From the IMG/VR virus record IMGVR_UViG_3300006048_000003: a DNA stretch of 64,000 nucleotides; one strand, written 5' to 3'. The stretch is from a virus. Numbering within the stretch: position 1 is the first letter of the stretch; every line of letters begins with the position of its first letter. This document shows, piece by piece, positions 5,576 through 30,527 of this stretch. A program made the translations under genes and the position numbers. Under the pieces are notes generated by a model that did not search any database, was not told the DNA's origin, and saw only the letters and a program-made list of their open reading frames with translations.

Positions 5576-5611
5576 TTTACTCCTACGAACCGGGAGTAAT
5601 CGGTGTATGCC
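5576..5611 (-). repeat. Dispersed repeat-like unit (covariant stem)
   Basis: Sense GGCATACACCGAT-TACTCC-CGGTTCGTA-GGAGTA-AA; 32 nt before GTG 5543. Confidence 0.75.
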
Positions 5612-5625
5612 CGGAACAACACTCA

Positions 5626-5661
5626 GTTGCAACTACGAACCCGTTGCAGTGGGACTTTACC
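5626..5661 (-). repeat. Dispersed repeat-like unit, tandem with 5576-5611
   Basis: Sense GGTAAAGTCCCAC-TGCAAC-GGGTTCGTA-GTTGCA-AC; contains the stop codon (5657) of the upstream ORF. Confidence 0.9.
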
Positions 5662-6169
5662 CACGCAGATTCTGGTACGCACGCATGGTCGCTTCCTGAA
5701 CCCGATCTACCAGTTCCCGCCAGGCGTCGTGATCGTTCTCGATATCGATCCCCGTGTCTCGTGCCAGACCATCCAAATATCCATTGTCATGCCCTTCATA
5801 CGGCTCGAAATCCCCTACTGATGTTTGATTGGGATACCACACACCCTGCCGCATCCCACCCGCGATCCCGGCAGCTTCGTTTTCTGAGTTGGCAGATTGG
5901 TCGTCATGAACAATCCCACCACCAACGCGAACGTGATTCCCCAAATGAGTCATCACGGAGCCATTGAGGAATCCACCATGATCCCTCAACTGCATATTGG
6001 CGAGAGCACCATCAATCCGTTTCCATGCCGCCTCGTCGGAGCGTCCGTTCTCGTCTAGCCAATCCGCGTAGACCCAATGACGGGTGGAATCATGTGGATT
6101 CTCGTCAATAGATCTCTGGAAATCACCATCGGAATGGGAGTAATTCGTGGGCTGCACGTTTGTAGTCAC
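5657..6169 (-). CDS. TIGR02996-like domain protein flanked by repeat units
   Basis: IDENPHDSTRHWVYADWLDENGRSDEA; SD GAGGAG before GTG 6169. Confidence 0.7.
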   Translation of the reverse strand: MTTNVQPTNYSHSDGDFQRSIDENPHDSTRHWVYADWLDENGRSDEAAWKRIDGALANMQLRDHGGFLNGSVMTHLGNHVRVGGGIVHDDQSANSENEAAGIAGGMRQGVWYPNQTSVGDFEPYEGHDNGYLDGLARDTGIDIENDHDAWRELVDRVQEATMRAYQNLRG

Positions 6170-6190
6170 GATGACTCCTCGTCGGTTGGA

Positions 6191-6226
6191 TTTGCAGCTA
6201 CAAACCCACTGCACTGGGATACCCAA
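6191..6226 (-). repeat. Dispersed repeat-like unit
   Basis: Sense TTGGGTATCCCAG-TGCAGT-GGGTTTGTA-GCTGCA-AA; between portal stop (6233) and GTG 6169. Confidence 0.85.
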
Positions 6227-6232
6227 ACACTA

Positions 6233-28662: not shown

Positions 28663-29514
28663 CTACCATCCATCAAAACCGTCAATGTCTTCCTGAATGC
28701 GGCTTTCGTAATCGACAATAAGTCCACCTTCTGGGTTAATCTGCGGAACATTGGCGTTGGAAATTCCGTAAACCGGAAATTGGAACTCGATTCCGGGGAA
28801 CTTCCGACACCGCCAGATGCACTTTCCGTCTTCCGCTCGCAACACGGAACGGAACTGGTCTTCCCATCCCGGAATGTCCCGTGGGTCATCCGTCAGGGCC
28901 ACCTTTTGGATGGGCTGTGCAGTGTCGGGAACCGGACGACAGACATGCTTCCTGCCGGCACCCTTACACGTTTCACACGTCTCCCACTTGCCCTTGAAAT
29001 TCAGAACCCACCCATCACGACCATACATTCGACAGGAACACCTTCCGACGTCCTTCATATCCGGATGCCACACCAACTGATCCGCGTGCGTGAGGAAGTC
29101 TTCAGCCGGAAGCACTAATGACAACACGAAACCACGAGAGTAGTAACAGCGTTTCAGATGGGGACGACCACGCAATTGCTCTGGGTCGCCTGGTAAGTGC
29201 CGAAAATCGAATCCTGCCAGACAAGGAGCAGCAGTCCACGAATCCCCCTTGAATAGCACCCACAATTCCCGCTCACGTTGTTGCAGTCGGTTGACGTTGG
29301 AATATTCCTCAGATTGCCAGACATGCTTCGGTAAAGACTTCACCATGTCTACAACTACACAATTCGCCTTCGCCAACTCTACCTGCACACGAATGAATTC
29401 CGCCCTGTCCTCTTCCCCCTGCTCCTGAATGCAGTCCGCATATTCCAACCGCACCGAATCTTCGTCCGGATTCGTGATGATGGCCTGAAGCAATTGCCGC
29501 TGTGTGTCGGTCAT
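28663..29514 (-). CDS. TIGR02996-like domain protein with DnaJ-type CxxCxGxG insert
   Basis: LLQAIITNPDEDSVRLEYADCIQEQGEEDRAEFIRVQVELA; paralog of 16553..17419. Confidence 0.8.
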   Translation of the reverse strand: MTDTQRQLLQAIITNPDEDSVRLEYADCIQEQGEEDRAEFIRVQVELAKANCVVVDMVKSLPKHVWQSEEYSNVNRLQQRERELWVLFKGDSWTAAPCLAGFDFRHLPGDPEQLRGRPHLKRCYYSRGFVLSLVLPAEDFLTHADQLVWHPDMKDVGRCSCRMYGRDGWVLNFKGKWETCETCKGAGRKHVCRPVPDTAQPIQKVALTDDPRDIPGWEDQFRSVLRAEDGKCIWRCRKFPGIEFQFPVYGISNANVPQINPEGGLIVDYESRIQEDIDGFDGW

Positions 29515-29987
29515 GACTTCACCCAGTTGTCGAGAAGCCAGATGATTGCCAAATTTGCCGAATTCTGTCTCCGACCAGCAATCAAATGCGGAACGATACG
29601 ACCCGAAAATATCCTGTGAGAGAAAATTAGTTCCCATTTGTCATTAACTGACCAAAAACAGGTCTTGCCGTCATCACAGACTGCTGGATACGGACCAGAC
29701 GTTTCCGGTTCGTACTGATTCGGCTCGAAAACATCCCTGACAGGTTCCTTCGCGGCCCACAACGCACAGTCGGCTGCGTTCTCCATGTCCTCAATCAGAA
29801 GTTCATCGACCAGCCCCATCGGACATCGCCGCTCCTGCACCCAGAAGTCAATCAGGTCGCGGATGTGCGAATTCGTTTGGTACAGACTGGCCACCGTCTT
29901 GGGAACGAACTGAGTAATCTTTACCTGCACCGGAGAATTCCCACCCGTCCCCGTTGTCACAGTGCATGTAGCCATTACGTGGGTCAT
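29511..29987 (-). CDS. Hypothetical protein
   Basis: 158-aa ORF. Confidence 0.55.
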   Translation of the reverse strand: MTHVMATCTVTTGTGGNSPVQVKITQFVPKTVASLYQTNSHIRDLIDFWVQERRCPMGLVDELLIEDMENAADCALWAAKEPVRDVFEPNQYEPETSGPYPAVCDDGKTCFWSVNDKWELIFSHRIFSGRIVPHLIAGRRQNSANLAIIWLLDNWVKS

Positions 29988-30415
29988 TCTGCTTCCTTGT
30001 TGAATTCATCCAAAATATGACACCGAAACTCGTCGTGGTCGACTCTCCACCTACGGTCGCGAGGAACGTACTCGTAAGGACCAGGACGGACAGGAACTGC
30101 TGGGTCAGCCCGAACAGGCGTCCTTCGTCCTGGAGGATACGTTATCTGCGGAACCGTGGGGGCAGGTCGAAGGAACAGTGATGGACTTACCACAACGGCA
30201 GCAAAGAGTAGTTTCAGACACGGCTGACGCTTCAGGTGGTCTGCAAGCTTGTGGACGTCGCGGATGATGTCTGCTGCCTTGTCCGCATCGCCACGCAGAG
30301 CCACTTCACATTCTGGCTCACCGTTCTCCTGAAGCCAATCTGCCAAAACAAGCTGAGCGTCCCTGTCCGTGGGGCAGGAACAGCACACACGAAGTAAGAG
30401 ATTGCCGTCACTCAT
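29984..30415 (-). CDS. TIGR02996-like domain protein
   Basis: CPTDRDAQLVLADWLQENGE. Confidence 0.7.
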   Translation of the reverse strand: MSDGNLLLRVCCSCPTDRDAQLVLADWLQENGEPECEVALRGDADKAADIIRDVHKLADHLKRQPCLKLLFAAVVVSPSLFLRPAPTVPQITYPPGRRTPVRADPAVPVRPGPYEYVPRDRRWRVDHDEFRCHILDEFNKEAE

Positions 30416-30442
30416 AAATGATCCCGTGTCGTGGTGAACCCA

Positions 30443-30478
30443 TTCGCCCCTATAAACCTGGTGCGGTGGGATTGTTGT
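30443..30478 (-). repeat. Dispersed repeat-like unit (divergent), tandem with 30492-30527
   Basis: Sense ACAACAATCCCAC-CGCACC-AGGTTTATA-GGGGCG-AA; 24/36 identical to the consensus by manual count; 27 nt before ATG 30415. Confidence 0.7.
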
Positions 30479-30491
30479 TTACGGACCCATC

Positions 30492-30527
30492 GTTGCAACT
30501 ACTAACCCGTTGCAGTGGGGTGTCTGC
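30492..30527 (-). repeat. Dispersed repeat-like unit directly after a promoter
   Basis: Sense GCAGACACCCCAC-TGCAAC-GGGTTAGTA-GTTGCA-AC. Confidence 0.9.

Follow-up and report, generated by a model that had tools for sequence, protein, structure and literature searches.

Tandem copies of a predicted Cas12m scaffold in the transcripts of a tailed phage

The cas12m locus and its paired scaffold units

The IMG/VR virus record IMGVR_UViG_3300006048_000003 provides a stretch of 64,000 nucleotides (the window) that forms part of the ~104-kb (103.9-kb) genome of a tailed phage, in which the minus strand holds nearly all the genes. Within it lie a CRISPR array, the gene of its effector Cas12m, and a set of repeat-like hairpin units dispersed outside the array; the subject of this analysis is those units that stand side by side as tandem pairs. 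All features are on the minus strand unless stated otherwise. The array (10315-10789) has seven 36-nt repeats with spacers of 38, 35, 36, 42, 35 and 37 nt, and adjoins the gene for the 634-amino-acid Cas12m (10912-12816). The protein matches Cas12m entries of the PDB (23vw_A, E = 2e-43; Cas12m2 8hhl, E = 1e-4), while the match to TnpB is weak, and about 30 phage-borne relatives were found. The sequences VALGWR and DRAxNAA are invariant across 13 homologues of this clade, which appears to have lost the RuvC aspartates, the catalytic positions being assigned from TnpB/Cas12 motifs. Further landmarks are the Mu-type portal gene (6233-9433) and the gene for the small terminase (27611-28357). The regions containing the pairs are identical in sequence among assemblies of this phage from several root-associated metagenomes.

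Five pairs, each of two 36-nt units on the gene-sense strand, are found at the coordinates given for them in a preliminary description, with the same five gap sequences between the units. We designate the units first and second in the sense direction, in which unit positions 1-36 are also counted. A covariance model, R2, was trained on the array repeats and single units only, the pair members being excluded to avoid circularity. It recovers all ten members of the five pairs, with scores from 46.0 to 15.9 bits (E = 3e-11 to 0.014), of which those of units 9548, 9599 and 9940 are the weakest. In pair 1 the first unit (5626-5661, 44.2 bits) has an array-like stem and contains the stop codon of a 170-amino-acid gene at positions 3-5. 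After a gap of 14 nt (5612-5625) follows the second unit (5576-5611, 29.3 bits), with a variant stem and a CCG/CGG variant of the pseudoknot described below, and a 231-amino-acid gene starts 33 nt further downstream. The first unit of pair 2 (9599-9634, 16.7 bits) carries the stop of a 99-amino-acid open reading frame (ORF) in its loop (positions 24-26); a gap of 15 nt (9584-9598) separates it from the second unit (9548-9583, 17.3 bits), a loop variant in final position in the array operon, with the portal start 114 nt further on. Pair 3 has the stop of a 93-amino-acid ORF in the loop of its first unit (9998-10033, 24.0 bits; positions 27-29), a gap of 22 nt (9976-9997), and a second unit (9940-9975, 15.9 bits) followed by a ribosome-binding site and, 32 nt downstream, the start of the 99-amino-acid ORF. 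In pair 4 the loop of the first unit (17480-17515, 25.2 bits) contains the stop of an 83-amino-acid gene at positions 27-29; the gap is 10 nt (17470-17479), and a 285-amino-acid gene begins 24 nt beyond the second unit (17434-17469, 45.2 bits). Lastly, the first unit of pair 5 (30492-30527, 46.0 bits) starts 3 nt after the -10 box of a promoter, and the second (30443-30478, 26.9 bits) lies beyond a gap of 13 nt (30479-30491) and 28 nt before the start of a 143-amino-acid gene. The gaps are thus far shorter than the array spacers (35-42 nt), as the preliminary description had noted.

Read in the sense direction, a unit begins with ~10 nucleotides that are not conserved, followed by a CCCA element and then by a 6-bp hairpin with a loop that opens with GGG. 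The CCC and GGG can form a 3-bp pseudoknot. Taking the stem and pseudoknot together, 97.2% of the cells are paired and there are 34 double-sided changes; none of 500 shuffles reaches the observed value, and slid controls give 21-46% paired. At the pseudoknot pair 13-22, C-G is switched to G-C in six units. The minus strand pairs better than the plus strand (97.2% vs 91.7%; 97.6% vs 89.3% for the stem alone) because of G-U pairs, which indicates that the molecule read is the sense transcript. Two such G-U pairs, possible on the minus strand only, lie in the stem of the first unit of pair 4. The unit sequences match the repeats of the cas12m-adjacent array, as the recovery of all ten by a model built from the array and single units attests, and they have a pseudoknot and stem-loop in the 3′ part of the repeat, the place directly 5′ of a guide. 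Judged by sequence, then, the units are copies of the CRISPR RNA (crRNA) scaffold, pseudoknot plus hairpin, predicted for the phage-encoded Cas12m. No family in Rfam matches the region.

Across the phage, ~25 scaffolds lie at gene boundaries, and the paired units represent the doubled state of this set. A scan with the full model, R1, revealed a sixth tandem at 49599-49695, where units 49660-49695 and 49599-49634 are separated by 25 nt within a long open frame (48954-50213); R2 detects unit 49599 (23.8 bits) but misses 49660 at E<=1. The same scan gave two weak tandems. At 15787-15873 the strong unit 15787-15822 is preceded by a degenerate one (15838-15873, 16 bits), within a 670-amino-acid gene, and the other, at 47490-47581, has units of 22.6 and 7.4 bits, with a sliding-clamp-like gene (46368-47468) starting 22 nt further on. 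Chance co-occurrence in short intergenic space was considered as the cause of doubling and rejected by simulation: with 21 solitary units distributed randomly among 70-110 gene junctions, at least six doubly occupied junctions arise with P of 0.008-0.0008.

The stems of tandem partners cross-pair less than those of random pairs of units (P = 0.047), which hints at selection against either misfolding or recombination. The pair regions have unexceptional fold energies (z from -2.35 to +0.81), fitting a fold that depends on protein and not terminators; plain stable hairpins or terminators were also rejected, as a terminator scan remained at background. Pair 1 is the only pair region with a z-score below -2, and there (5566-5625) the gap can pair in 8 of 9 bp with sequence just past unit 5576, enclosing that unit in a stem.

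Gene context and the sister phage

The preliminary description had placed the pairs within mRNAs, and they do lie in phage transcripts in the sense orientation. The orientation of units tracks that of genes, both here and in a sister phage (L006/L015; portal 72% and Cas12m 68% identical), and the only plus-strand unit (2701-2736) adjoins the only plus-strand gene nearby. Beyond second units, and likewise beyond single ones, come a ribosome-binding site and start codon at +15 to +33. Upstream ORFs often terminate at one of two stops within the unit, UAA (positions 2-4) or the UAG of the loop. The stop of the upstream ORF falls inside the structured scaffold in five of eight first-of-tandem units (those of pairs 2, 3 and 4, and two in the sister phage) but in only one of the 14 single units (Fisher P = 0.011). 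As a general rule, a fixed division of labour between a 3′-end unit and a 5′-leader unit was rejected, for single units do both jobs at other junctions. The two tandems located inside ORFs (in the 670-amino-acid gene, 14539-16551, and in the frame 48954-50213) are read through in the unit's one stop-free frame; the sister-phage orthologue of the 670-amino-acid gene has no unit at that place.

The promoter upstream of pair 5 (30531-30559) is a copy of a phage motif (TTGCC, 17-18 nt, TAGnGT) that has nine matches in the window vs 0.8 expected. Seven copies are on the minus strand (6227-6255, 12881-12909, 13913-13940, 19969-19997, 30531-30559, 50170-50197 and 55383-55411), and four of these, those at 6227, 12881, 30531 and 50170, are directly followed by a unit; besides pair 5 these are the single units 6191, 12845 and 50134. 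Transcription from these copies would thus start just a few nucleotides ahead of the pseudoknot, giving RNAs that open with a nearly mature handle. Pair 5 is the only pair placed in this way, the remaining pairs being internal to operons. A transcript of the array would continue through the 93-amino-acid ORF, pair 3, the 99-amino-acid ORF and pair 2, so that pairs 3 and 2 bracket the 99-amino-acid ORF, and between pair 2 and the portal gene lies a conserved promoter-like stretch. Of the motif copies, the one where the portal gene ends is conserved in the sister phage.

One single unit recurs particularly widely. In every examined phage of this Cas12m clade a scaffold unit lies ~30 nt upstream of the cas12m start (12845-12880 in the window; L011:9943-9963, L013:9932-9971, L002:1007-1046 and L006:6501-6540), even in phages that have no other dispersed units. 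This suggests that it is a conserved autoregulatory leader.

The sister phage has its own variant of the scaffold, with the outer pseudoknot pair 11-24 switched, together with a four-repeat array and about 20 dispersed units. Its tandems have gaps of 7-16 nt and comprise one pair, one triple before a kinase-like gene and one run of four; it also has two-unit mini-arrays with normal spacers of 32-35 nt. The run of four lies between orthologues of the 93- and 99-amino-acid ORFs (42-44% identity), a junction that holds pair 3 here, and the gap sequences of the two phages at this junction are unrelated. The gene content between units also differs between the phages. A class of units with the CCG/CGG pseudoknot and a GCUCC/GGAGC-type stem (5576, 9998, 49599 and 54391 in the window; 1280 and 9850 in L006) is near-identical in both, although their array repeats differ in the pseudoknot, and this class may be a separately conserved sub-family. 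In L006 the first array 'spacer' (8472-8506, in the region 8389-8506) is the reverse complement, at 30 of 33 nt, of 8389-8421 in the 3′ end of cas12m. The first repeat, which has the cas12m stop codon in its loop, is in this way enclosed by a ~33-bp inverted repeat, which could be either a self-directed guide or a long stem for processing or termination.

These comparisons bear on the possibility that the tandems are scars of recombination, in which a cassette bearing a unit integrates at a resident one and leaves two side by side, with no function beyond that of single units. Units 9940 and 9548, identical at 32 of 34 nt over the unit only, bracket the 99-amino-acid ORF, as would be seen after insertion by a single crossover, and units 30492-30527 (minus) and 2701-2736 (plus) are identical over 36 nt although 27.7 kb apart with unrelated flanks. 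Because the identity is confined to the unit, units seem to spread as discrete modules. The numbers of units at the orthologous junction (two vs four) and the divergent gene content between units point the same way, and some tandems may indeed stem from cassettes that carried a unit and inserted at one already resident. Against functionless scars, stems and pseudoknots are intact in both members of every pair, the partners have diverged to stems that do not cross-pair, the range of spacing is narrow with a floor of 17 nt between structured cores (below), and doubling correlates with ORF overlap; together these suggest selection on the tandem state. We therefore regard scars alone as an unlikely account, and an origin by recombination is in any case compatible with later function. 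The identity of units 30492-30527 and 2701-2736 includes the normally unconserved 5′ part, and both follow similar promoter-like sequences.

How general are the dispersed units? Four relatives of the same family, in which the examined surroundings of the portal include no cas12m, are devoid of units over 94 kb, and their genes are tightly packed. In another family, three phages encode a Cas12m of the same clade; they have ordinary arrays and the unit just before cas12m, and no dispersed units within 10 kb. Among prokaryotes, neither the repeat core nor a relative of this Cas12m clade was found by exact short-pattern searches of 185,579 species representatives. IMG/VR gave no copy of the repeat and no relative of the Cas12m, and a looser repeat pattern found only contig L013; a metagenome scan gave one 1.7-kb contig, which covers the cas12m leader unit only. 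In the INPHARED phages there was no DNA match, and one distant Cas12m, in Virus Rctr197k, whose repeat is confined to its arrays (<=3 mismatches). From this distribution it follows that the units go with the phage's own effector and not with a host system. It thus weighs on the idea that the units are RNA decoys that soak up the Cas12m of a host or rival phage, with tandems raising the dose. RNA anti-CRISPRs in the form of solitary repeat units are known from phages (Racrs; PMC10651486), but this phage itself encodes the cognate Cas12m and array, its units lie in mRNAs at fixed distances from start codons and not in an anti-defence locus, the prokaryotic search revealed no such target, and relatives without cas12m are also without units. 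Decoys are accordingly a very improbable explanation.

Regarding the neighbouring genes, searches of Pfam and PHROGs gave no function for those flanking pairs, except for the clamp-like gene after the weak pair 47490. The portal protein has a C-terminal extension with a match (residues 973-1060) to Pfam PF07737, the family of anthrax lethal factor N/C-terminal domains (E = 1.5e-7); in its place relatives have different C-terminal modules (2′-5′ RNA ligase, kinase, ParB-like). Just upstream of the weak tandem 47546/47490 a sequence resembles a tRNA T-arm and 3′ end (47585-47640); it is not called by ARAGORN, whose sole tRNA in the window is tRNA-Arg(TCT) at 48724-48798.

Length of the inter-scaffold segment and the search for targets

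The gaps of 10-22 nt were measured between 36-nt units, yet in solitary units the initial ~10 nt show no conservation and are located 5′ of the structured core. In Cas12m2 the scaffold is likewise 36 nt, of which the 5′ 7 nt are disordered, the guide-target heteroduplex is 17 bp, and the pre-crRNA is cut upstream of the scaffold (PMC10442227). We therefore measured the distance core to core, counting from where one scaffold ends up to the next scaffold's first pseudoknot base. For pairs 1-5 it is 24, 25, 32, 20 and 23 nt, and for the sixth tandem 35 nt; the tandems of the sister phage have 17, 22, 22, 22 and 26 nt, and its mini-arrays with normal spacers 42-45 nt. No tandem of either phage falls below 17 nt, the length of the Cas12m2 heteroduplex. 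The very short spacers are thus partly an artefact of counting. The preliminary description had proposed that truncated guides, which support binding without cleavage, might be released from the gaps. With no tandem below 17 nt core to core, the truncated guide is the wrong frame: the segment of 20-35 nt here has the length of a full guide, and if the clade lacks the RuvC aspartates, as it appears to, there would be no cleavage for a short guide to avoid.

Do these segments have targets? The DNA of this phage that was searched is the 64-kb window, the remaining ~40 kb and the host genome lying outside the search. None of the eight inter-scaffold segments has a match of at least 16/20 nt elsewhere in the window. 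The longest 5′ seed matches, which would be proximal to the protospacer-adjacent motif (PAM), are 8-11 nt, the same as for 400 random 24-mers in the window, the PAM itself not being established. Searching each gap with the sequence that follows, as had been suggested, yielded chance-level matches only, whether in the window or in 15 related loci, where the gaps with the next 10 nt gave nothing meaningful. The spacers of the arrays of both phages likewise gave matches at the level of chance (in the window, in the 15 related loci, and for sister-phage spacers against this phage). One array spacer (10716-10753) has a 16-nt exact match to L012 (E = 0.002), which we judged to be a GC-rich chance match. 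That no target was visible by eye in the window thus agrees with the systematic search. Nothing in these searches indicates that the segment between the units of a pair would be a guide against any target, and for regulatory guides from the gaps the lack of a target is joined by the unrelated gap sequences at the orthologous junction of the sister phage. The suggestion of binding at two sites fares better; it is plausible, since the units appear to copy the handle of the effector encoded beside the array, which is predicted to bind DNA without cutting it.

These results have to be set against a reading of the pairs as hard-wired mini-guides, in which each would be a two-repeat mini-array whose processed segment of ~17-25 nt guides the non-cutting Cas12m to silence a fixed site in the DNA of the host, a rival phage or the phage itself. 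The layout of repeat, short spacer and repeat is that of CreA/CreR and viral Cracr RNAs (bioRxiv 10.1101/2023.03.03.530964; 10.1101/2024.10.29.618823), and the pairs do consist of two repeat-like sequences around one spacer-like segment. With a promoter directly upstream, the first product of pair 5 would be a ready-made crRNA-like RNA of ~50 nt. The core-to-core length is never less than 17 nt, the array-like 3′ end of the repeat is kept in the first units of pairs 1, 2 and 5, and the two-unit mini-arrays of the sister phage, with spacers of 32-35 nt, are a further point in favour. Set against this are the absence of 16/20-nt matches in the window, seeds no longer than those of random 24-mers, and the empty search of the 15 related loci; neither there nor in the window did any segment have ~9 or more PAM-proximal matches to a promoter beside a PAM. 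At the orthologous junction both gap sequences and unit number differ between the phages, and most pairs have no promoter of their own. Moreover, the 5′ part of the next unit contributes up to 10 nt to each putative guide, and in three pairs these nucleotides retain the repeat consensus. On balance we think it improbable that the pairs are mini-guides.

Doubled scaffolds as candidate docking or processing sites

The reading we favour, to which we would assign a probability of roughly 0.45, is that the pairs are doubled Cas12m scaffolds that act as docking or processing sites in phage transcripts. It builds on the observed structure, strand and geometry of the pairs, their co-occurrence with cas12m and their recurrence in the sister phage. 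A scaffold pair would be transcribed in the sense direction, within phage mRNAs or the array transcript, and one nuclease-dead Cas12m would bind to each scaffold. The core-to-core segment (17-35 nt) would be a linker, the minimum length of which would be set by the ~17-nt guide channel or footprint of the first effector. The RNA would then be cut upstream of the second scaffold, in the manner of pre-crRNA processing by Cas12m2. In this way the upstream cistron would keep its stop codon and a protein-bound 3′ hairpin, while the downstream mRNA would begin with a handle, its ribosome-binding site and start codon following 15-33 nt later. Doubling would be needed where translation of the upstream ORF invades the first scaffold, and an RNA of crRNA size (~50 nt) would arise as a by-product.

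A number of points weigh against docking or processing sites. The rule of ORF overlap is based on small numbers and has an exception in the single unit 9850 of L006. No ORF precedes pair 5 and no gene lies just downstream of pair 2, so that no one rule fits all, and the tandems 15787/15838 and 49599/49660 lie inside ORFs and not at junctions. A minimum spacing of 17 nt would be equally expected for a functional minimal guide. Finally, binding, cleavage and an effect on expression are predictions from sequence, and the mechanism by which Cas12m processes RNA is itself not settled in the literature.

Cas12m crRNAs are 50-60 nt long, with cleavage inside the repeat (PMC11013384), and Cas12m2 may process as a transient dimer (PMC10442227; PMC11013384). 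These properties allow a more specific proposal, which we hold to be doubtful: that the nuclease-dead phage Cas12m serves as an RNA-binding factor for punctuation and processing, single handles only binding it over ribosome-binding regions, with tandems made competent for cleavage by the transient dimer, so separating cistrons and shedding guides of ~50 nt. If Cas12m does bind or cut these sites, a CRISPR effector that targets DNA would also be a post-transcriptional regulator of a viral genome, and the natural tandems would reveal the minimum spacing for multiplexed Cas12m guides.

How do the units relate to known systems? The closest in structure is the type V-M scaffold of MmCas12m2, GoCas12m and MsCas12m (PMC10442227, PMC11013384). 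There too a 36-nt repeat has a 3′ pseudoknot and stem-loop directly before the guide, with a few dispensable nucleotides at the 5′ end, and the effector is a compact protein that binds DNA without cutting and itself processes pre-crRNA upstream of the scaffold; the adjacent phage protein matches it by sequence. In contrast, the scaffold here is also scattered singly and in tandem through phage mRNAs, with compensatory substitutions in the stem, most copies are followed by gene starts rather than spacers, and the inter-unit gaps are 10-25 nt as against 35-42 nt in the array.

CreA/CreR (bioRxiv 10.1101/2023.03.03.530964; 10.1101/2023.03.10.532045) and viral Cracr RNAs (bioRxiv 10.1101/2024.10.29.618823) share with the pairs an arrangement of two degenerate repeats flanking a spacer-like segment shorter than the array spacers; reported mini-array spacers are 20-60 bp. 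They lead to outcomes that require binding only, can be multiplexed, and occur in phages. However, the known examples are defined by ~9-11 PAM-proximal matches to a cas or toxin promoter, of which none was found here in the window or related loci, and most of the pairs lie between or within genes with no promoter of their own. The known viral cases hijack the effector of the host, whereas this phage brings its own. Racrs (PMC10651486) are mimics of CRISPR repeats in intergenic regions of phages, often right after a promoter, that are bound and processed by Cas proteins, a property predicted for the units here. Yet Racr candidates are by definition away from other repeats and cas genes, and SRUFinder drops repeats within 100 bp of each other; the units of this phage do not stand alone in this sense, being in tandem, ~25 per genome, and accompanied by the cognate cas12m and array.

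The roles already known for lone CRISPR repeats and mini-arrays are thus those of decoys, or of guides tuning cas and toxin genes. Here, scaffold copies with compensated stems mark many gene boundaries of a phage that supplies the effector itself, and the tandems offer clues to mechanism in a spacing floor equal to the guide length of the effector, in doubling that goes with translation into the first scaffold, and in one leader driven directly by a promoter.

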